The notes under the pieces: generated by a model
The model's database searches: none
What the model saw: the letters and a program-made list of their open reading frames with translations, nothing else
What the model was told of the DNA's origin: nothing
Part shown: positions 2,894 to 63,692 of the stretch, piece after piece
Numbering within the stretch: the first letter of the stretch is position 1
Layout: each line of letters starts with the position of its first letter
Source: Clostridia bacterium
Lineage (GTDB): Bacteria; Bacillota; Clostridia; UMGS1883
Reading direction: 5' to 3'
DNA length: 64,000 nucleotides
Assembly: GCA_030527235.1 (NCBI GenBank)
Contig: JAUNBL010000003.1
Location: 31,065 to 95,064 of the forward strand
Translations under genes and position numbers: made by a program

Positions 2894-5368
2894 GTGATAC
2901 ATCAAGACATTGAGCTTACCGAAGCGCAAAAAATACTCAAAGAGGAGATACTCGGCAAGCTCAGCCGTCATTACGGACGGACACTTGAAGATGCAACGGA
3001 CGCACATATATATAAGGCGGCCGCCCTATGCGTAAGGGACGTAATTATGGAGAGATGGATACAATATCGCCGCCAGCAGCGTAAAACACAAAACAAAGAG
3101 GTCTTCTACCTCTCGTTTGAGTTTTTGATGGGCCGCGCGCTTGGGAACAATCTTCTTAATCTTGAGCTTACAAAGGATTACGACCAGGTATTGAAATCGA
3201 TGGGGCTTTCGCTTTACGAAATCGAGGATAAAGAGGCTGATGCGGGGCTTGGAAACGGTGGATTGGGTCGCCTTGCCGCATGTTTTCTCGATTCCTTGAC
3301 AACACTTGAACTGCCGGCTTTTGGCTGTTCTATCCGCTATGAATACGGATTGTTTAAACAAAGAATAGTTGACGGCGAGCAGGTAGAACTGCCCGACAAC
3401 TGGTTGAATGACGGAAACATGTGGGAAATAGCCGCTCCGGAAGAAAGCATGATTGTCCGCTTTGGCGGCAAGGTGTTTACGGAGAGTACAGATAGCGGCA
3501 TGTCCGTCAGATACGAAGACACCACTAACATTGTAGGAATACCATATGATATGCCTATCTGCGGCTACAAGTCGAATATTGTAAATACTCTGCGCCTTTG
3601 GAGCGCGCGCGCAGAAAAGGACCTGGACATTTCTGCCTTCAGCGAGGGAGAGTTAATGAAGGCGGTTGAGGATAAGGCGATGGCGGAGTCAATCAGCAAA
3701 GTGCTCTATCCCGAGGACTCCAATCCGGAAGGCAAGGCTCTCAGGCTGCGCCAGCAATATTTCTTTGTTTCCTGTACTCTGCAATGGATGATACAGCGCT
3801 TTAAGCGCCATCACAACGGCGATTTGTCGAAACTCTCGGAGCTTGTCGCAGTTCATATAAATGATACGCACCCGGCGATTGCCGTCCCGGAAATGATGCG
3901 TATACTTATGGACGAGGAAGGCATGGGCTGGGATGAGGCGTGGGATATTACCACAAAGATTTTTGCGTATACAAACCACACTATTATGAGCGAGGCTCTT
4001 GAAAAATGGCCTATGGACCTTTTCATGCGCCTACTCCCGAGAATTTGGATGATTACGGTGGAGATAAACCGCCGTTTACAGATTCGGCTTGAAGAAGCTT
4101 ATGGCAACGATATAGGCAAAATTAACTATATGCTCATTATTGCAAACGGGTATGTGAATATGGCAAATCTTTGCCTTGCAAGCTGTCATAAGGTTAACGG
4201 CGTATCCAAGCTGCATACAGATATTTTGCAAAACGATGTATTCCGGGATTACTATAATCTTAATCCCGAAAAATTTGTTGCGATAACAAACGGCATTACC
4301 TACCGAAGATGGGTGCGTCTGGCGAACCCTGAGCTGTCAGATTTGATTACAAAAACGATTGGTAAAGGCTGGGAAACAAACTGTGAAGAATTGAAAGCTT
4401 TAGCGCCTTTTGCCGATGACGCCGCATTTCGCGAGCAGTTTGCCAAGGTGAAGCTGGAAAAGAAAAAGCAGCTTGCGAAATATATACAGGAAAACAATGG
4501 CATTGAAGTTGACCCGAATTCCATCTTCGATGTGCAGGTTAAACGCCTCCATGAGTATAAACGTCAGCTGCTGAATATTCTTCACATAATGTATCTTTAT
4601 GACAGGATAAAACATAATCCCAAAGTGGAGATACATCCGCACACCTTTATTTTCGGAGCGAAAGCTGCCCGTGCTTATACCAGGGCAAAGCTTATTATTA
4701 AGCTGATTAATGACGTTGCGAAAATGGTAAATAACGACCCTGATGTAAACGGAAGAATTAAAGTCGTGTTTATTGAGAATTATGGTGTATCGCTTGCGCA
4801 GATGATTATTCCCGCAGCGGAAATCAGCGAGCAGATATCAACCGCAGGGCTTGAAGCTTCAGGGACGGGGAATATGAAGTTTATGGCGAACGGCGCGCTT
4901 ACTGTAGGGACATTAGATGGCGCAAATGTTGAAATGAGCGAATGTGTGGGGATAGATAACATCTTTATTTTCGGAATGAATACACCCGAGGTGAAAAGCG
5001 CTCTCCAATACGGCAGACCTGCGCCGCAGGATATTTATGCCTCTAATTCCGATATCCGCAGAGTGTTGGAAATGCTTATAGACGGGACTGTGAGCGGAAA
5101 TAAGACGTATTATGATTTGTATCAGAGTCTGCTTTTTGGTGACCGCAGCGGTTGCGCCGACAGATACATGGTCGTCAGGGACTTTGAAAGTTATGTGCAT
5201 ATTCATCAAATTATAGATAAGGCGTATCGTGCGCAGGACGAGTGGCAGAAAAAAGCTGTGCTCAATGTGGCTTACTCGGGATTTTTCTCAAGTGACAGGA
5301 CTATCAGCGAGTATAATGAAAAAGTATGGCGGCTAAACAAGTATAAAAAGCCAAAGAACGGGAAATAA
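2894..5368 (+). CDS. glgP: glycogen/maltodextrin phosphorylase
   Basis: EASGTGNMKFMANGALTVGTLDGANVE pyridoxal-phosphate site motif; 824 aa; GTG start. Confidence 0.9.
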   Translation: MIHQDIELTEAQKILKEEILGKLSRHYGRTLEDATDAHIYKAAALCVRDVIMERWIQYRRQQRKTQNKEVFYLSFEFLMGRALGNNLLNLELTKDYDQVLKSMGLSLYEIEDKEADAGLGNGGLGRLAACFLDSLTTLELPAFGCSIRYEYGLFKQRIVDGEQVELPDNWLNDGNMWEIAAPEESMIVRFGGKVFTESTDSGMSVRYEDTTNIVGIPYDMPICGYKSNIVNTLRLWSARAEKDLDISAFSEGELMKAVEDKAMAESISKVLYPEDSNPEGKALRLRQQYFFVSCTLQWMIQRFKRHHNGDLSKLSELVAVHINDTHPAIAVPEMMRILMDEEGMGWDEAWDITTKIFAYTNHTIMSEALEKWPMDLFMRLLPRIWMITVEINRRLQIRLEEAYGNDIGKINYMLIIANGYVNMANLCLASCHKVNGVSKLHTDILQNDVFRDYYNLNPEKFVAITNGITYRRWVRLANPELSDLITKTIGKGWETNCEELKALAPFADDAAFREQFAKVKLEKKKQLAKYIQENNGIEVDPNSIFDVQVKRLHEYKRQLLNILHIMYLYDRIKHNPKVEIHPHTFIFGAKAARAYTRAKLIIKLINDVAKMVNNDPDVNGRIKVVFIENYGVSLAQMIIPAAEISEQISTAGLEASGTGNMKFMANGALTVGTLDGANVEMSECVGIDNIFIFGMNTPEVKSALQYGRPAPQDIYASNSDIRRVLEMLIDGTVSGNKTYYDLYQSLLFGDRSGCADRYMVVRDFESYVHIHQIIDKAYRAQDEWQKKAVLNVAYSGFFSSDRTISEYNEKVWRLNKYKKPKNGK

Positions 5369-20519: not shown

Positions 20520-20619
20520 CTCGTGATAAGTCTACAACATTATTTTGGAAATGTCAATTGACATCGTAATGTATATATGATATGATAAACACAATTCAAA
20601 TAAGCCGTATGGCTTAATA

Positions 20620-20790
20620 CGTGACATCGGTGCCCGGTAAAACGGGAGAATAGGGAATCAGGTGCAAATCCTGAGCAGTCCTGCTGCCGTGAAAGGCGAG
20701 CTGCTTCACAATATGCCACTGCGGTCTTTGCCGTGGGAAGGCGGGAAGCGGCGGTGAACCTCAGTCGGAAGACCTGCCGATGTTTGGGAA
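20620..20790 (+). promoter_or_regulatory. cobalamin (AdoCbl) riboswitch
   Basis: Conserved core AGGGAA-nnn-GGTGcAAaTCC, and B12 box GCCACTG at 20715-20721. Downstream hairpin gccttgac/gtcaaggc (20836-20855) followed by a U-rich tract as expression platform. Confidence 0.8.
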
Positions 20791-20895
20791 TTAAAGCAAC
20801 TTCACAGGGGCTTGAAGGGTGCGCTTTTTTAGTGCGCCTTGACTTTGGTCAAGGCTGTTGTTTAGTTGCAAAAAAAAATAAACGGAGGTATTTTT

Positions 20896-52590: not shown

Positions 52591-52666
52591 TCCTCAATAG
52601 CTCAGTCGGTAGAGCATGCGGCTGTTAACCGCAGGGTCGTTGGTTCGAGTCCAACTTGAGGAGCCA
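52591..52666 (+). tRNA. tRNA-Asn (anticodon GTT), CCA encoded
   Basis: Cloverleaf folds by eye: acceptor tcctcaa/ttgagga, D-arm gctcagtcggtagagc, anticodon loop cTGTTAa, T-arm gttggttcgagtccaac. Confidence 0.9.
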
Positions 52667-52670
52667 TATA

Positions 52671-52713
52671 TACTGAACGATTTGGATGCACTCCAAATTG
52701 TTCAGTATTTTTG
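52671..52713 (+). terminator. tRNA terminator hairpin; its 5' arm is copy 1 of a repeated motif
   Basis: tactgaacgatttgg/ccaaattgttcagta 15-bp stem then TTTTTG. Confidence 0.6.
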
Positions 52714-52772
52714 CGCCTTTGCGGGCTTTTTGAAAAATGGGCATTCAATGGTTTTTGGTAGATGCACCCACC

Positions 52773-52819
52773 GATTTGACAGGACTTGAACCGGGGATAC
52801 CCACTAAAAAGCTGAAATA
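52773..52819 (+). repeat. repeat copy A of GATGCAC..CAGGAnTTGAACCGGnGATA motif (diverged)
   Basis: Aligns by eye with copies at 52888 and 53483. Confidence 0.4.
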
Positions 52820-52887
52820 CAGCAAAAAAACATTCAGAAAATCAAATTCAAAATTCAAATTGAAAAACAGTAAAAAGCATATGTGAA

Positions 52888-52945
52888 CAATTTGGATGCA
52901 CAACAACTTTTTCAGGATTTGAACCGGAGATACACAAATTTATAT
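52888..52945 (+). repeat. repeat copy B: tgaacaatttggatgcacaacaactttttcaggatttgaaccggagatacacaaattta, upstream of gene at 53025
   Basis: Near-identical to copy at 53483-53540; contains TTGAAC -35-like hexamer. Confidence 0.55.
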
Positions 52946-52957
52946 AGAATACAAATC

Positions 52958-52996
52958 AGACGATAGTTTCTAATTAGAGATTATCGTCTTTTTTTG
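52958..52996 (+). terminator. hairpin plus T7 tract (member 1 of tatcgtcTTTTTTT terminator family)
   Basis: agacgatagtttctaa/ttagagattatcgtct then ttttttt. Confidence 0.55.
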
Positions 52997-53024
52997 TGCT
53001 CAAAAACGAAAGGACAGGATGAAT

Positions 53025-53402
53025 ATGAATCAGACGGAGTTTGAACATTGGCAAAAAGTTATGGACAGCAGCAAATATAGATGGGTTGAGGATGTCGTTG
53101 CTCGCCATAATGGTCATGGTTCTTTATATTACACCGGCGGTGAAGACGGCATCTATATGCGCATCTCCGCAGAGGGAAAGCTTACGATTGGAGAATATAA
53201 GGACGCATTTCCTCATATTGGAGAAGCAACATTTATTCCAAAAGCAGAGCATCAATACGATAGCTATAGCAAGGCTTTTGAGGCAGCCTGTAAGCTCGGT
53301 GGCGTACAGTTTCTCGCAGATATGTTTTCAAACGTTCAAATACCGCAAGAGCCGATTCCAACCGATGAAAGCGACAGCAATGGTATGAATATGGAAATGT
53401 AG
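53025..53402 (+). CDS. hypothetical protein (126 aa), first gene of element region
   Basis: ORF with AAAGGACAGG RBS; acidic C-terminus; no recognised motif. Confidence 0.4.
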   Translation: MNQTEFEHWQKVMDSSKYRWVEDVVARHNGHGSLYYTGGEDGIYMRISAEGKLTIGEYKDAFPHIGEATFIPKAEHQYDSYSKAFEAACKLGGVQFLADMFSNVQIPQEPIPTDESDSNGMNMEM

Positions 53403-53482
53403 CTTGTAAGAACAAGGTGTTATATATTACTACACTGATATCTTCCGTTTTGAGAACTTGAAACGCTATGACGGCATGTGCT

Positions 53483-53540
53483 GAACAATTTGGATGCACA
53501 ACAACTTTTTTAGGATTTGAACCGGAGATATATAAATTTC
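53483..53540 (+). repeat. repeat copy C: ctgaacaatttggatgcacaacaacttttttaggatttgaaccggagatatataaatttc, upstream of gene at 53571
   Basis: Near-identical to copy B. Confidence 0.55.
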
Positions 53541-53570
53541 TTAAAATACAAAATACAAGGAGAGATGCAC

Positions 53571-54227
53571 ATGAAAAATAACAGACTTTTAGACCAAATG
53601 CTGAAAATGCTTCCAAAGCACGAGCGAGTGAGCTATGAAGCAGCCACAGCGAGAATTGATGTTATCATTGACGGAAGTCCTAAATTCTACATACGGGAAA
53701 GCGGCGGCGTTACCTTTCCTGCAAATATGCTACATGATGATTTGTCCCGCAATTTACACGATGAGATTGTGCTGACAAGAGAGTGCGTGTCGGAATATTT
53801 GTTTGCAATGGACAATGCCTCCGATCTAAAGGCGTATGACTTTAATATGCCATACAAAAAGATTTTGGAATATAACGGTGTAGTGCTTGGCGGATTAGAA
53901 ACCAAAGACGGCGAATACAATTTTACAACCTGGAATTATGTCAAAGGAAGCTTGTACCACGGTCATTATTACGGAAAAGACTATAAAAAGGCAAAGGAGG
54001 ATTTTGTAACACGGTCAGGTCTTGTGAATGAAAACAGATTATTTACAGAAAAAGAAATGACCGCAATTTACAGAAGTGTTTCGGAAACGCTTGAAAGCGG
54101 ATATGAGCTTGACGATGAACAAATCAAGCTGCTAAAAGATATAAGAGATAAAATTGAATATGCTGTCCCAAGCCTTGATGAAACGGTCTGCGAGTCAAAC
54201 AATCAAGAATACGGACAGTCATTATAA
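53571..54227 (+). CDS. hypothetical protein (218 aa)
   Basis: AAGGAGAG RBS before ATG at 53571; no recognised motif. Confidence 0.4.
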   Translation: MKNNRLLDQMLKMLPKHERVSYEAATARIDVIIDGSPKFYIRESGGVTFPANMLHDDLSRNLHDEIVLTRECVSEYLFAMDNASDLKAYDFNMPYKKILEYNGVVLGGLETKDGEYNFTTWNYVKGSLYHGHYYGKDYKKAKEDFVTRSGLVNENRLFTEKEMTAIYRSVSETLESGYELDDEQIKLLKDIRDKIEYAVPSLDETVCESNNQEYGQSL

Positions 54228-57914: not shown

Positions 57915-57954
57915 CAGACGGTAATTTCTTAATTGAAGTTATCGTCTTTTTTTA
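57915..57954 (+). terminator. hairpin plus T-run (member 2 of terminator family)
   Basis: cagacggtaatttctt aatt gaagttatcgtct ttttttt. Confidence 0.5.
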
Positions 57955-59944: not shown

Positions 59945-60337
59945 ATGATAAAAATGAGAGTTTTGGCAGTAAAAATGGAAGAAAATTTGTTTGATGAGCT
60001 AAAGGCACATGTTAAAAAGTCAGGGCTGACCATGCAGCAATATGTTAATACAACGCTTGAAAGAGATATTCATTCACAGGCACAGACGCAGACGCAGGAT
60101 AATCAGCCAAAGGTATGGGAAAAGGACGAGGTCGAAAAGGCAATTGACGCATTCATTTCTCAAAACGGCAGAGTTCCTCGTCAGACTGAATTCAAAAACG
60201 AGAACGGTCTGCCGTCATACAAGGCGGCGGCAAGATGCTTGGACAGCTCCCCTGCTCAATATGCGCAAAGGCGCATGGATGAAACGGGAATTGCTGAACA
60301 AGAACAGGAAGCCGAAGATTTTTCAATGAGTATGTGA
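59945..60337 (+). CDS. ribbon-helix-helix (CopG/Arc-like) domain protein
   Basis: N-terminal MRVLAVKMEENLFDELKAHVKKSGLTMQQYVNTTLERDI fits the ribbon-helix-helix beta-alpha-alpha pattern. Confidence 0.5.
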   Translation: MIKMRVLAVKMEENLFDELKAHVKKSGLTMQQYVNTTLERDIHSQAQTQTQDNQPKVWEKDEVEKAIDAFISQNGRVPRQTEFKNENGLPSYKAAARCLDSSPAQYAQRRMDETGIAEQEQEAEDFSMSM

Positions 60338-60339
60338 AC

Positions 60340-60376
60340 AGGCGGTATCTTCAAAAGAGGGTATCGTCTTTTTTGT
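60340..60376 (+). terminator. hairpin plus T-run (member 3 of terminator family)
   Basis: aggcggtatc ttcaaaagag ggtatcgtct tttttt (G-U containing stem). Confidence 0.5.
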
Positions 60377-60713
60377 GTACCATGAAAAAGCAGGAAGGGA
60401 GAATAAAGCGGTGGATGAAAGAAACGAAAAGCTTTGCAGGGAAATCGGTGTGACCGCAGCAGATATCATATGTCTTTGGTGCGCATACGAGGAAACGCCG
60501 GAGGAGTTTTGCACATCCTTGATGTGCTCCGCAAGATATGAGGACAAGGAAAATATTATTGCAGATATGCGTTCGGACGCAGACAGGATATCCGCTGCGG
60601 TATATGAGATGGACATAGACGTATTGGATACACTGTACAGAGATTTTGGGATTTCCCTTACAGAATATTCCGACAGTCTGAACAGATCGCTTACAGGCGA
60701 GACTATAACCTAA
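60375..60713 (+). CDS. hypothetical protein (112 aa)
   Basis: ORF only; Cys-containing, acidic. Confidence 0.35.
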   Translation: MYHEKAGRENKAVDERNEKLCREIGVTAADIICLWCAYEETPEEFCTSLMCSARYEDKENIIADMRSDADRISAAVYEMDIDVLDTLYRDFGISLTEYSDSLNRSLTGETIT

Positions 60714-60734
60714 ACACAGATGTCCCCCGCCTCG

Positions 60735-60875
60735 CAAGAAGGCGAGTTCCATTTCAGAATTTCAGTGGGGGAAATAATCCCCCACTGAAACCCTGAGGAG
60801 CTAACGCTCCCTGTGTAGGTTGCAATCTGTCGCAAGCTCTGCTCCTTGCAAGCAAAGCAGAGCGTTGCTCCGATT
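60735..60875 (+). other. cluster of perfect hairpins in a 300-nt non-coding gap (candidate oriT-like or structured RNA region)
   Basis: tttcagtggggg aaataa tcccccactgaaa (13-bp stem), gcctcgc aagaa ggcgag, gctctgct ccttgcaagcaa agcagagc. Confidence 0.4.
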
Positions 60876-61006
60876 TAAAGCAAGCAGGAGATAAAACAAT
60901 ATGCGGAGCTTTTAATGCGGATTGCGGCGGATATGACGCACGGCGGAGTAAAGTGCATCAGCTTTTACAAGCAGTACATAAAGCAAGAATATGAGGAGGA
61001 GTCAAA

Positions 61007-61492
61007 ATGTTAAAAAATATTGATGTTATAAACAAAATTCATGAGGAATGCAGACAGATTGACGCATTGTCGGCAAGAATTACGGCGATATGCGATATGG
61101 AGGAGCTTGACATTTTCGAGCTTGCAGACAGCAAGGACGGAATATTTACAGACAGCATACAAAGGCACATACTTTCTGTGGCGGCGCTTCTGAGGCTTCT
61201 GACAGAGGACTATAAAGCAACGCTTGTATCAACTGACTTTTTCGCTGACGAATTTTTGGGACATACAAGACGCATAGAAGCCGACAAGGAGGTTTTGTGC
61301 GAGGAATGGGATTCGGTTATGGAGGAAATATGGAGTCTTGAGGCGTTTTGTGAAACGGAGCTGAAAAGCTATCTGCAAATGACGCAGAGCTGCTATCGTC
61401 ATGAATTCGAGCCGATCAAGATTGTGTTCGGGGAGGATAGCATATGTCAAGACGGTTTTTGGGAAATACCAAGCTGTTCCCCTTCGAGGTAA
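61007..61492 (+). CDS. hypothetical protein (161 aa)
   Basis: ORF with GGAGGAG RBS; no recognised motif. Confidence 0.4.
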   Translation: MLKNIDVINKIHEECRQIDALSARITAICDMEELDIFELADSKDGIFTDSIQRHILSVAALLRLLTEDYKATLVSTDFFADEFLGHTRRIEADKEVLCEEWDSVMEEIWSLEAFCETELKSYLQMTQSCYRHEFEPIKIVFGEDSICQDGFWEIPSCSPSR

Positions 61493-62242: not shown

Positions 62243-62265
62243 GCTGAAAATCAATTCATGGAAAA

Positions 62266-62310
62266 GGGCGGTCATTTTACGGAGCAATCCGTGAGATGAC
62301 CGCTTTTTTC
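62266..62310 (+). terminator. rho-independent terminator
   Basis: ggcggtcat..atgaccgc stem with nested acgga/tccgt, then ttttttcg. Confidence 0.55.
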
Positions 62311-62452: not shown

Positions 62453-63466
62453 ATAGGCAGAAATATCAAAAGTCCGTTTGGCTGGGTAGGCGGAAAGGGA
62501 TCATCAAAGCACATAATCCTTCCGAGCTTGCCGCTTGGCTGCGACAGGTTTATAGAGGTGTTCGGCGGAGGCGCAACAATTCTTTTGTCAAAGCTTGCGG
62601 ATAAGTTTGAGGTGTATAACGATTTTAACTCGGATCTGGTAAATATGTTTATGTGTATACGAGATATGCCGTTGTCCTTTGTGAGAGCGGTAGGATGTTT
62701 TCCGCTGGTCAGCAGACAGGAATTTAAGCTGCTGCAGGATTTTCTGCAGCGCAAGCAATTTGATTACAGCCTTATCGAACAAGAAAAGAAAGCTGCAAGA
62801 GAAATCTTTAACGAAGAAGAAGCGAACCGAATTTGCACGATCCTACAGGGACGGACGGAGCTATACAATGTGGACAGAGCAGCGGCGTTTTATAAAGTAA
62901 TACGCCTAAGCTACGGAAGCAGCGGCAAAAGCTTCGGAAGTCAACCGGAGAATTTGGGTAAGACGCTTTTAGACATTTATGCGATATCAGACAGGCTTAA
63001 AAATGTTGTCATTGAAAACAAGGATTTTGAAAGCCTGATTAAGCAATACGACAGAACAAACTCCGCATTTTATTGCGATCCCCCGTACTATCAGTCAGAG
63101 GGCTTTTACGAGGTGGAGTTTGGCACAGAGGACCATCTGAGACTGAGTGAATGTCTGCATAGCATAAAAGGCAAGTTTCTGCTTTCGTACAACGATTGCA
63201 GCTTTATAAAAGACTTGTATAAGGATTGTATGATTTACGAGTTTTCCCGTCCGCATTCACTTGCCCAGCGATACAGAGCAGGGAGCGTGTTTAAAGAACT
63301 GCTTATATCGAATTTTGATATGAATGAACGAAGAAAAAGCGAACCCGTACAATTAAATTTATTTGGAGATGAGATATATGCAAGAGACCTTTTACAAGAC
63401 TATAGGCAGAAAAGGCAGAACAACTATACCGTTATGTATGAGGCTTGTCTTAGGGATAAGAGATAA
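62453..63466 (+). CDS. Dam-like (D12 class) N6-adenine DNA methyltransferase, orphan; apparent non-canonical start
   Basis: Conserved N-terminal KSPFGWVGGK and FGGGA (motif I) and DPPY (motif IV, CDPPYY). These lie upstream of the first canonical start (TTG 62528). In-frame stop at 62444; candidate ATA at 62453, 9 nt after GGAGG. Confidence 0.65.
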   Translation: MGRNIKSPFGWVGGKGSSKHIILPSLPLGCDRFIEVFGGGATILLSKLADKFEVYNDFNSDLVNMFMCIRDMPLSFVRAVGCFPLVSRQEFKLLQDFLQRKQFDYSLIEQEKKAAREIFNEEEANRICTILQGRTELYNVDRAAAFYKVIRLSYGSSGKSFGSQPENLGKTLLDIYAISDRLKNVVIENKDFESLIKQYDRTNSAFYCDPPYYQSEGFYEVEFGTEDHLRLSECLHSIKGKFLLSYNDCSFIKDLYKDCMIYEFSRPHSLAQRYRAGSVFKELLISNFDMNERRKSEPVQLNLFGDEIYARDLLQDYRQKRQNNYTVMYEACLRDKR

Positions 63467-63692
63467 TACATTATTAAGGTTCACGAGAACCGACAAGCAG
63501 GTAATCATCACACCGATGCGGGAATGTGAAAGCGGCATATGTGAAATGCACAGAAAAAGCACGCTTGACGCATCCGAAATCGAAACCTTAATCGGCGAGA
63601 TATCTGATGAAAGTCTGGCGCAGATGATACCTGTCATTGTAAACAAATTAAAGAAAAGCGCCGGAGCAGCTTCCGGCAGCGAGGAAAACTGA
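63378..63692 (+). CDS. AbrB/MazE-type (swapped-hairpin) DNA-binding protein
   Basis: IGRKGRTTIPLCMRLVLGIRDNTLLRF resembles the AbrB/MazE/SpoVT looped-hinge motif. Confidence 0.45.
   Translation: MQETFYKTIGRKGRTTIPLCMRLVLGIRDNTLLRFTRTDKQVIITPMRECESGICEMHRKSTLDASEIETLIGEISDESLAQMIPVIVNKLKKSAGAASGSEEN

Follow-up and report, generated by a model that had tools for sequence, protein, structure and literature searches.

Phage lambda attP has arm-type integrase sites and Xis sites, and Tn916 and CTnDOT have analogous sites at their ends. Sites II and III of the Tn3/gamma-delta res sites also repress tnpA and tnpR, and subterminal repeats accompany the IS607-family serine transposases. Large serine recombinases, to our knowledge, are not known to need accessory sites. 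Among the non-coding sequences of conjugative DNA, Frpo is a long imperfect hairpin with its -35 and -10 formed in the stem, and single-strand promoters have reportedly been described for plasmid leading regions. Conjugation operons of Gram-positive plasmids use antitermination, as in the conAn system of pLS20. EGeRS2 (p576) and EGeRS1 (pLS20) are establishment-gene regulatory sequences of Bacillus conjugative plasmids (PMC8708921). EGeRS2 has a strong constitutive promoter, repeated operator heptamers right upstream of the -35 and a ribbon-helix-helix repressor, while EGeRS1 lacks a constitutive promoter and, in one orientation, stops transcription from reading through (PMC8708921). Clostridial large serine recombinases with DUF4368 use many targets (PMC10083194).

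The locus described here is the left end of a conjugative-type element lying behind a tRNA-Asn gene in a 64-kb stretch of a Clostridia contig (the window). Its features are listed in Table 1. The same two-box layout was found in more than 20 lineages of related elements, which carry ArdA, LPD28, DUF4314, D12 methylase and Tad-like genes. The related elements were collected using the 218-aa gene as a marker; three of the loci, L129, L131 and L132, come from long contigs (JAQVDV010000001.1, Ga0265294_10000114 and ERZ27277085 k141_85907, respectively). With the 218-aa protein as query, the plasmid collection gave no relatives and the phage collection gave two distant matches on unannotated faecal contigs; one phage-collection contig (L128) has the same gene order and a T2SSE-type ATPase. 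A Logan contig (L127) spans window positions 52626-64099, ending at the window end. No description of this element family was found in the literature, and no integrase of the element lies within the 11 kb of it that the window holds. Our preferred reading, held tentatively and short of even odds, is that proteins of the element, for recombination or regulation, use the repeat copies at this end as accessory or operator sites.

Table 1. Coordinates of features at the left end and in the gene array of the element (window positions)
Feature	Position	Strand	Remarks
tRNA-Asn(GTT) gene	52591..52666	+	encoded CCA; ARAGORN, Rfam; the element's left boundary is at its last base
Hairpin 1 (T1)	52670..52713	+	stem 17 bp, one G.T pair, loop TGCAC, T-run (TATTTTT)
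T2	52713..52731	+	small G+C hairpin with T-run (GCGCCTTTGCGGGC TTTTT)
Copy 1b (diverged)	52757..52799	+	left box GGTAGATGCACCCACC, TAGAT at 52759-52763
Right box of copy 1b	52782-52792	+	GGACTTGAACC, then GGGGATA
Copy 2	52884..52934	+	left box TGAACAATTTGGATGCAC at 52884-52901; spacing 26 nt
Right box of copy 2	52915-52925	+	GGATTTGAACC, then GGAGATACA
Hairpin T3	52958..52996	+	14 bp (52958-52989) and T7; about 30 nt ahead of the ribosome-binding site of the 53025 gene
125-aa gene	53025..53402	+	between T3 and the usual first gene
Copy 3	53482..53532	+	right box 53513-53523; T3 absent after this copy
218-aa gene	53571..54227	+	usual first gene of the family
T3-like hairpin with T-run	57916..57954	+	AGACGGTAATTTCT...GAAGTTATCGTCT TTTTTTT; shortly before the LPD28 gene
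Second, more diverged T3-like hairpin with T-run	60340..60374	+	after the putative ribbon-helix-helix-like gene

A preliminary description of this DNA had reported a motif of about 50 nt in three close copies and one diverged copy. These were recovered: the close copies start at 52674 (left half), 52884 and 53482, and the diverged one lies at about 52757-52799 (GGTAGATGCACCCACC...CAGGACTTGAACCGGGGATA), where the alignment requires a 1-nt indel. The left half TGAACRATTTGGATGCAC is found at 52674, 52884 and 53482, on the plus strand in all three cases; with up to 3 mismatches there were 3 matches against 0.11 expected, and none of 100 shuffles reached 3. The right half CAGGAYTTGAACCGGRGATA is found at 52780, 52913 and 53511 (0.00 expected). 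The copy number is well above chance. Each copy consists of two boxes, a left box TGAACAATTTGGATGCAC and, about 21 nt downstream, a right box GGAYTTGAACC. Between copies 2 and 3 there are 2 mismatches in 51 positions (96% identity), and their similarity runs over about 75-109 nt. Copy 1b gave the best nhmmer match (E = 8e-10), with a TAGAT-to-TTGAAC spacing of 27 nt.

All copies lie within 52674-53532, ahead of the first genes, and the motif was not found elsewhere in the window's 11 kb of the element. Related elements, which the preliminary description had proposed to search, do have further copies. The copies do precede the genes at 53025 and 53571, but the distance of 60-80 nt given for them did not hold: the TTGAAC hexamers at 52919 and 53517 lie 106 and 54 nt before the ATGs, and the motif ends about 90 and about 38 nt ahead of them. 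Origin as an IS remnant had been named as a caveat. The copies are not such a remnant: the repeat ends after about 50-109 nt and is not part of a longer one with transposase remnants or terminal inverted repeats. The left-half 18-mer gave 19 matches in 185,579 species genomes, all by chance and inside unrelated genes. In viral contigs the left half likewise gave chance matches, and the right half matched tRNA-Cys genes and an unrelated gene family. Rfam, also at a permissive threshold, found the tRNA alone and gave the copies no match.

Judged from their junction sequences, the elements use many different tRNA genes and begin precisely behind the CCA. One and the same element (93-100% identity over 300 nt) was found behind different tRNAs, which over their last 19-40 nt share only 55-79% of bases. 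In 14 of 21 distinct junctions the CCA is followed at exactly 18 nt by an RGAT core, among hairpin stems that cannot be aligned; at other tRNAs, RGAT was found in 3 of 26 within a 4-nt window. At the junction studied here the core is GGAT and starts at +18. Seven lineages have a second TAGAT at +94 to +97. Shared ancestry in the absence of indels could account for part of this constancy of position. The left box differs between lineages and always matches the 5′ arm and loop of that lineage's own hairpin 1, as seen in the window, L037, L048 and L035. In the window, copy 1 of the left box (52674-52691) lies inside hairpin 1 and forms its 5′ arm and loop. The preliminary description had placed this copy in the 5′ arm of the hairpin that terminates the tRNA, which is right; the stem is 17 bp rather than 15, and it is element DNA and not host DNA.

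The right box is the reverse complement of the tRNA T-arm. A 10-mer census of the 64 kb found only 4 matches to GGAYTYGAAC; the only one outside the copies is the T-arm of tRNA-Asn, GGTTCGAGTCC, on the opposite strand. The box is nearly universal in the family. GAYTYGAAC was found in about 45 distinct instances from more than 20 lineages; every instance precedes the first genes, and almost all share one orientation, with L132 opposite. It matches real T-arms, namely those of viral tRNA-Cys genes and of tRNAs with minus-strand nhmmer matches. In the window copies the T-stem pairing is broken and only the T-loop side of 11-19 nt is imitated, while the T-stem is intact in some lineages (L129, L109, L125).

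Another explanation is non-functional scars, leftovers of repeated insertion, deletion and duplication at a tRNA hot spot. Such scars would consist of parts of the element end fused to tRNA fragments and would persist solely through recent ancestry. Elements are stacked at tRNA ends in L047 (GGDEF/XRE cargo between two motif units), L050 (with a truncated tRNA-Asn) and L130 (with a mobilisable element inserted). Copies 2 and 3, at 96% identity, flank an inserted gene, and in L132 the T-arm-like boxes are followed by degenerate hairpin-1-like sequence. However, the ordered layout (hairpin 1, T2, copy 1b, copy 2, T3, gene) and both boxes are kept where the marker proteins are only 30-50% identical and the flanks and spacers have diverged; in L037 and L050, both boxes are identical while 6 of 18 spacer bases differ. 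Nowhere can the T-arm-like part be recognised as a piece of a tRNA: neither a cloverleaf nor a T-stem with acceptor and CCA was found, no acceptor or CCA follows the right boxes in the window, and ARAGORN and Rfam found tRNA-Asn alone. It is also inverted relative to the tRNA, as direct-repeat scars would not be. We regard scars as an improbable origin of the boxes, one that would make this an ordinary finding.

Hairpin 1 and T3 are the only inverted repeats at the element end. Both are stable G+C-containing stems directly before a T-run on the transcribed strand, as expected of intrinsic terminators. Hairpin 1 (52670-52708; DNA folding z = -5.75) starts 4 nt past tRNA-Asn; it terminates the tRNA transcript and, by the junction comparisons, is encoded by the element. 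The counterpart of T2 in alignments of related elements is a longer terminator (GGGTTTGCG...CGCAAACCC TTTTT). T3 has a folding z of -4.59; 6 of its 13 pairs show compensatory changes across the family, and its G.U (G.T) pairs are valid on the plus strand only. A covarying terminator of this kind after the last copy belongs to the standard layout of the family. The presence of a T3-like hairpin at 57916..57954 indicates that the hairpin unit, and not the two-box motif, recurs inside the gene array. The preliminary description did not mention T3, which stands between copy 2 and its gene.

Homologues of the 125-aa gene lie deeper inside the gene array in other elements. In the closest relative (L137), T3 immediately precedes the 218-aa gene, which has no copy directly ahead of it. 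Copy 3 is evidently, on this comparison, a recent duplicate made when the 125-aa gene inserted. The location is of the leading-region type, with many anti-restriction genes that share one strand. For the 130-aa product of 59945-60337, Pfam gave only a sub-threshold match (DUF7240); its N-terminal sequence, rather than any family match, makes it a candidate ribbon-helix-helix-like protein. An AbrB/MazE-like protein, the other kind of regulator named in the preliminary description, is encoded at 63516-63692.

The locus is like EGeRS1 and EGeRS2 in that conserved non-coding cassettes are repeated just upstream of anti-restriction or establishment genes in Gram-positive conjugative elements. The preliminary description had read the repeats as promoter-plus-operator cassettes for early genes. 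Stated in full, this explanation takes TTGAAC as the -35 of a sigma-A promoter, and the left box as the operator of an element repressor, for example the ribbon-helix-helix-like product of 59945-60337, with the palindromic hairpin 1 as a strong operator. The copies stand ahead of the first genes, and copy 3 directly before the 218-aa gene; insertion of the 125-aa gene duplicated the motif, giving one per gene. The lineage variation of the left box is what an operator and its repressor would show. The repeated cassettes of p576 have their operators right in front of the -35, where a ribbon-helix-helix repressor binds them (PMC8708921). Among the window copies, only copy 3 has a possible sigma-A -10, with TTGAAC at 53517-53522, a 19-nt spacer, TAAAAT at 53542-53547 and a correctly spaced ribosome-binding site at 53557-53564; in L046, TTGAAC is followed after 17 nt by TAGAAT.

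Across the family the promoter part is not supported. A -10 hexamer at 16-19 nt follows TTGAAC in 4 of 31 last copies against 3.4 in shuffled sequence, and in 2 of 11 upstream copies against 1.4; copies of the 1b type never have one. With no family excess of -10 hexamers, TTGAAC does not serve as a general -35. A sigma-A promoter would have 16-18 nt between its -35-like hexamer and a TAnnnT -10; the window spacers, 20 nt at copy 2 (before TAGAAT) and 19 nt at copy 3, are outside that range. A promoter scan found none at the copies. A terminator begins 9 nt past the box in L041, the box is reversed in L132, and T3 would stop transcripts from copy 2 after about 40 nt. Unlike EGeRS2, the left box is single and lies 21 nt upstream of TTGAAC, with no dual heptamer, and the motif is present only at the element end, being absent before the other transcription units of the array (57983, 60375/61007 and 62585). 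There is also no sequence similarity to EGeRS and no strong sigma-A promoter here, and the unit that recurs in the array is the 14-bp hairpin T3 rather than a structured region of 400-750 bp. The +18 rule at the junction is left unexplained by such cassettes. Searching by eye for sigma-54, ECF, sigma-H, sigma-E/K, Spo0A, CodY and cre boxes, we found none that fits consistently across lineages. The first genes need a promoter of some kind, and no better one was found for them, a point against the preferred reading; no canonical promoter lies past T3. The operator half of the proposal, by comparison, agrees with boxes that are conserved around a free spacer. Taken whole, cassettes of the EGeRS2 kind seem to us a serious though unlikely explanation. 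On the preferred reading too, copy 3 may double as a weak promoter in this one element.

The preliminary description had also raised hairpin-forming single-strand promoters. Like the Frpo/ssi sequences of F-like and IncI plasmids, the copies are non-coding repeats in a leading-type region, upstream of co-directional anti-defence genes. Promoters or priming sites of the Frpo/ssi or sso type on the incoming strand during conjugation would suit this anti-restriction-rich, one-strand location, where such promoters are said to occur in plasmid leading regions, and hairpin 1 and T3 are strong. However, copies 1b, 2 and 3 fold on neither strand (z from +1.39 to -0.61), unlike the long hairpin of Frpo. 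Over the 315-nt region the template strand of these genes, the minus strand, shows no unusual structure (z = -1.28), and G.T pairs weaken hairpin 1 and T3 on it. No promoter-like pair was found on the minus strand inside the element end, and no stem holds a -35/-10 pair. The unfolded copies and the ordinary minus strand make an Frpo-type promoter unlikely; folding largely refutes the single-strand reading, and we give it almost no weight.

A signal in the RNA leader was also considered, for example one for processive antitermination past T3 and the T3-like terminators of the array. Three or four terminator hairpins of one family stand on the plus strand between units of a co-directional array of 11 kb, no canonical promoter lies past T3, and conjugation operons of Gram-positive plasmids give the precedent for antitermination. 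The copies, however, have no predicted RNA structure. The 286-nt leader has z = -2.6, mostly from T3, Rfam gave no match, the spacer is not conserved, and the reversed box of L132 would ruin an RNA signal. A leader signal is therefore very improbable in our estimate.

Starting from the established architecture and its conservation, the positional rule and the absence of hairpin and -10 features from the copies, we infer the binding protein and the effect of binding as follows. On the preferred reading, the copies would be two-box DNA sites for proteins, forming part of a conserved tRNA-proximal left end. The left box repeats the junction-adjacent sequence with its RGAT core at the fixed +18; the protein that contacts it is most probably the element's recombinase or a partner co-evolving with that enzyme. 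The right box presents, inverted, the T-arm consensus, the one feature common to all targets of the element. Its most probable ligand is again this machinery, or else an accessory or directionality factor that is conserved. Within about 250 bp, the junction site and one to three internal modules would then act in the manner of integrase arm sites, of the accessory sites of a resolvase, or of operators. The modules may assemble a recombination complex, couple its occupancy to the expression of the first anti-restriction genes, or both, while the three terminators would shield those genes from the strong tRNA promoter; a block of read-through like that of EGeRS1 would here be the work of T1-T3.

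This end compares well with known recombination sites, having short repeated sites within a few hundred base pairs of the crossover, at conserved positions and lineage-specific. As in lambda, Tn916 and CTnDOT, one side of the crossover has several short direct repeats in a span of about 250 bp, with one repeat near the junction, fixed positions and repeats specific to the lineage. Two kinds of box at fixed spacing resemble an Int arm site beside an Xis site. Unlike those three systems, three terminators are interleaved here and one copy lies 815 bp inside; at that distance from the junction, copy 3 is too far for an arm site. One box imitates the target T-arm, inverted, and lambda has no counterpart of this. 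The accessory sites of serine recombinases (Tn3/gamma-delta, IS607) are similar in being extra sites beside the crossover and possible operators, and RGAT at +18 falls at the contact expected of a large serine recombinase in an attP-type half-site. Unlike serine-recombinase sites, the boxes are tandem and not in inverted pairs, and the nearby serine recombinases belong to other islands or are unassigned. Both boxes in each copy point one way, unlike the head-to-head half-sites of a normal attachment site.

A bolder version goes further. The family would recognise tRNA genes generically through T-arm DNA and insert after the CCA of almost any tRNA, the inverted T-arm decoys and the junction-site copies at the left end serving as secondary docking sites of the recombinase. 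Decoys of this kind could keep the recombinase at the element end, determine directionality, or limit expression of the anti-restriction genes to times when free recombinase is present. We consider it doubtful, and we know of no target-mimic control module described for any integrase.

Should the boxes be recombinase or regulator sites, they would mark out the control region at the left end of conjugative elements that are widespread in gut and anaerobe Clostridia and uncharacterised as a family. The family lands at the 3′ end of nearly any tRNA gene and, if this holds, the CCA, the RGAT at +18 and the inverted T-arm box would give a handle on element boundaries in metagenomes. It would also give insight into how anti-restriction genes are silenced beside a strong tRNA promoter and released after transfer, and a recombinase with a generic, structure-like target would be a possible integration tool.

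Two further candidates were rejected. The large serine recombinase of L130, considered as the element's integrase together with an attR-like end in L134, was dropped because its homologues occur in a small element bearing NikA-like/relaxase genes. Each copy was also considered as a complete or inverted attachment site, and the orientation or distance of the left box relative to the T-arm box is wrong for this. The resemblance of the right box to the T-arm was first revealed by the right-half matches in viral contigs (tRNA-Cys). In L037, a large serine recombinase and Pycsar genes lie beside the left end.

The tRNA-Asn(GTT) gene of this Clostridia MAG lies downstream of ordinary host genes encoding GH127 and GH43 glycoside hydrolases and is followed on its 3' side by a conjugative-type element, which occupies the remaining 11 kb to the window end. 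Its genes form a closely packed array, all on the + strand, including a 125-aa gene, a 218-aa gene and genes for an ArdA-domain protein, a HipA_C-like protein, an LPD28 protein, a DUF4314 protein, a ribbon-helix-helix-like protein, a D12 adenine methylase and an AbrB/MazE-like protein. This array is the anti-restriction, 'leading-type' portion of the element.

As listed in the table, the left end of the element carries repeated copies of a motif, here called copy 1 (left half only), copy 1b (diverged), copy 2 and copy 3. Three matches to the left half were reached in 0 of 100 shuffles and the expected number of right halves was zero, so the copies stand as the preliminary description reported them. 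The right box, GGAYTYGAAC, occurs elsewhere in the 64 kb only in the T-arm of tRNA-Asn, on the opposite strand. Copies 2 and 3 have 2 mismatches in 51 positions and resemble each other over ~75-109 nt. A 17-bp hairpin with a T-run behind it (folding z = -5.75) has copy 1 as its 5' arm and loop, which confirms the proposed place of copy 1 in the hairpin ending the tRNA transcript. Between copies 1b and 2 lies a low-complexity A/T repeat, of which the portion TTCAAATTG complements the left box of copy 2.

Coordinates of features in the window and, where a locus is named, in related loci
Feature	Location	Strand	Remarks
Cobalamin riboswitch aptamer	20611-20795	+	host part; Rfam RF00174, 117 bits
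tRNA-Asn(GTT)	52591-52666		perfect TTGACA-17-TATAAT promoter ahead
Left half, TGAACRATTTGGATGCAC	52674, 52884, 53482		
Right half, CAGGAYTTGAACCGGRGATA	52780, 52913, 53511		
Left boxes, TRGATGCAC	52683, 52759, 52893, 53491		n = 4
Right boxes, GGAYTYGAAC	52782, 52915, 53513		n = 3
A/T repeat	52840-52862	+	aatcaaattcaaaattcaaattg
T3-like hairpin	57916-57954	+	just upstream of LPD28 gene
T3-like hairpin	60340-60374	+	after ribbon-helix-helix-like gene
Largest non-coding gap of element	60337-61007		670 nt
19-nt inverted repeat	60754-60796	+	TCAGAATTTCAGTGGGGGA aataa TCCCCCACTGAAACCCTGA; G5/C5 core
20-bp hairpin with T-run	62264-62307	+	in 470-nt gap
D12 methylase, longest ORF	62528-63466		312 aa
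D12 methylase, called gene	62585-63466		293 aa
Small mobilisable element	L130 364-2110; L134 10001-12400; L138 3692-11290		
Serine recombinase and Pycsar-like genes	L037 94-4524		adjoin left end
XRE-type and GGDEF-like genes	L047 540-1440		after tRNA-Cys
Truncated tRNA-Asn	L050 3540-3602		adjoins element
Last-copy spacer	L037 about 4948-4965; L050 about 3869-3886		18 nt

About 100 related loci were collected as homologues of the 218-aa and 125-aa proteins. Their gene content agrees with that of the window, and further along they encode YodL, SpoVG, DUF6133, SAF/RcpC and a T2SSE-type ATPase, a set which suggests a Tad-like transfer apparatus. In ~35 loci a same-strand tRNA gene (Asn, Arg, Cys, Met, Pro, Ala, Gly, Leu, Glu or Ser) precedes the 218-aa gene by 150-550 nt. 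Near-identical element DNA begins directly 3' of the CCA of differing tRNAs, as in the loci L078 (Gly) and L088 (Arg), L048 (Arg) and L051 (Cys), L041 (Asn) and L042 (another tRNA), and L129, L130 and L131 (three differing tRNA-Ser ends), with 93-100% identity across the 300 nt after CCA against 55-79% before it. The hairpin ending the tRNA therefore belongs to the element, whose boundary is the CCA. Insertion of one family exactly after the CCA of many differing tRNAs appears to be undescribed in the literature searched. In L050 the tRNA-Asn adjoining the element lacks its first ~20 nt, so that ARAGORN makes no call; unrelated sequence replaces the 5' part, which suggests that another insertion or rearrangement took place at the same tRNA.

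A large serine recombinase would suit both a sharp CCA junction that lacks a long repeat and the conserved motif located 17-23 nt away from the crossover. One with a DUF4368 domain directly adjoins the left end in L130, and such recombinases use many targets (PMC10083194). As the element's own enzyme it was rejected: its homologues are part of a small element, where they occupy the right end; this element carries NikA-like and relaxase genes and interrupts tRNA-Ser upstream of the T-arm. The recombinase is therefore that of another island, stacked at the tRNA which the conjugative-type element also uses. This small mobilisable element (DUF6809, DUF6076, AAA_25, NikA-like protein, relaxase and the recombinase) precedes the conjugative-type element in L130; in Ethanoligenens harbinense (L134) it occurs on its own and has RelB/ParE at the end. 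Upstream of the L037 left end there is no tRNA; a different serine recombinase and Pycsar genes (PycTM and two cyclase-domain proteins) are found there. In L047, XRE-type and GGDEF-like genes lie between two motif units. The genes beside these two left ends are defence or signalling cargo.

Ten left ends, drawn from at least six lineages, share one order when aligned: CCA; hairpin 1, whose 5' arm or loop contains AGAT; a second terminator, T2; a two-box copy of the 1b type; a variable stretch; a two-box copy of the 2 type; a semi-conserved A/T-rich stretch; a hairpin, T3, with T7; and, after ~30 nt, a ribosome-binding site and the first gene. In 14 of 21 distinct junctions the start of RGAT falls exactly at +18 from CCA, though the hairpin stems are unrelated in sequence, while other tRNAs of the same loci gave 3 of 26 (4-nt window). 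The window follows this rule (GGAT starts at 52684), and a second TAGAT is found at +94 to +97 in seven lineages. The left box of a later copy repeats the 5' arm and loop of its own lineage's hairpin 1 (window, ACTGAACGATTTGGATGCAC vs TGAACAATTTGGATGCAC; L048, AACCAAAGAGATA in both; L035, GGCTGACCATTTGACCAT vs GGCTGTCAATTTGACCAT). Scars of stacked insertions are an unlikely origin of the copies, as order and boxes are conserved across lineages with 30-50% protein identity. A separate short motif, TCAAAAAGGGCRC, recurs in eight left ends of other lineages (L078, L088, L093, L118, L125, L129, L056 and L060); it is the 3' arm of terminators and reappears right ahead of the first gene's ribosome-binding site, a second example of a terminator arm repeated downstream.

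Each copy consists of two boxes and a free spacer (alignment of ten copies from four elements). From the T of TAGAT/TGGAT to the first T of TTGAAC the distance is 26-27 nt in the window and close relatives and 33-36 nt in distant lineages. L037 and L050 are 96% identical overall; the boxes of their last copies are identical and 6 of 18 spacer bases differ. These 6 are among ~12 differences in total, a clustering that resembles local exchange or a patch under relaxed constraint.

The right box is nearly universal, with ~45 distinct instances, all upstream of first genes and on the gene strand; further copies thus exist in related elements, as had been asked. The exception is the L132/L133 lineage, with three T-arm-like boxes (GGTTCGCATCC) in opposite orientation. 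Scanning viral contigs with GGAYTTGAACCGGRGATA matched tRNA-Cys genes on the opposite strand, and an nhmmer model built from the copies also matched real tRNA T-arms on the minus strand. Judged by its sequence, the right box is an imitation of the tRNA T-arm, limited in the window to the T-loop and the 5' side of the T-stem; there the stem is unpaired, the box is not followed by an acceptor strand or CCA, and nothing is called by ARAGORN. Other lineages have it as a paired T-arm-like hairpin or perfect palindrome (L129, GCGGGATTCGAACTCCCGC; L109, GGGGATTCGAACCCC; L125, GAGGTTCAAACAGGATTTGAACCTC).

Folded as single-stranded DNA, copies 1b, 2 and 3 showed no fold on either strand (z +1.39 to -0.61), and the whole region as minus-strand DNA was not unusually structured (z = -1.28). 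These results contradict the earlier idea of hairpin-forming single-strand promoters, which is very improbable. The Rfam search matched only the tRNA. An RNA leader or antitermination signal, being without structural support, is improbable as well.

TTGAAC in the right box resembles a -35 hexamer. A -10 was scored as TAnnnT with four or more of six positions matching, at a distance of 16-19 nt; across the family one followed 4 of 31 last copies (3.4 in composition-matched shuffles) and 2 of 11 upstream copies (1.4 in shuffles). A convincing sigma-A promoter for the first genes was found in no lineage. In L041, T3 starts 9 nt past the right box. Copy 2 of the window has TAGAAT after 20 nt, and a transcript from it would start at the foot of T3 and reach T7 after ~40 nt. 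For copy 3 the hexamer is TAAAAT at 19 nt, T3 is absent and the distance to the ribosome-binding site is suitable; copy 3 may therefore be a weak promoter, in the window's element only. TTGAAC, which the preliminary description took as -35-like, is not supported as a general -35 of the family. To read the copies as a simple promoter-operator cassette, on the pattern of EGeRS2 of p576 (PMC8708921), is rather doubtful and finds its main support in copy 3.

T3 is a genuine RNA-type hairpin of the + strand; it shows compensatory changes in 6 of 13 pairs, and its G.U pairs would be mismatches on the opposite strand. T3-like hairpins (AGACGRTA.TTTC...TTATCGTCT and a T-run) recur between array units, so that homologous hairpins resembling terminators interrupt the array ~30 nt ahead of ribosome-binding sites. 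The insulation of the family's anti-restriction genes by three terminators appears to be undescribed in the literature searched.

Tentatively, the copies fit best as sites on the DNA for recombination or regulatory proteins, because the motif stands at a fixed distance from the junction and is confined to about the first 250 bp of the element, its boxes are conserved and its spacers free, lineage-specific motif duplication occurs beside a universal T-arm imitation, and there is neither structure nor a -10. As a kind of feature, subterminal sites for recombinases or regulators are already known; the role proposed here is comparable to that of integrase arm sites combined with Xis sites, or of resolvase accessory sites doubling as operators. 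A junction-site copy paired with an inverted tRNA T-arm mimic appears to be undescribed in the literature searched.

In the closest relative, L137 (218-aa protein 79% identical), T3 lies directly ahead of the 218-aa gene, as in the standard plan, and in other elements the 125-aa gene is placed deeper in the array. The window order (copy 2, T3, 125-aa gene, copy 3, 218-aa gene) is therefore derived. It arose by gene insertion and motif duplication, with T3 missing after the second copy, and this accounts for the near-identity of copies 2 and 3.

All genes upstream of the 19-nt inverted repeat, which sits in the element's largest non-coding gap, point toward it, and it might be a transfer origin or other protein site. 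A strong hairpin precedes the D12 methylase gene, whose called form is shorter than the longest ORF, and a cobalamin riboswitch aptamer was found in the host part.
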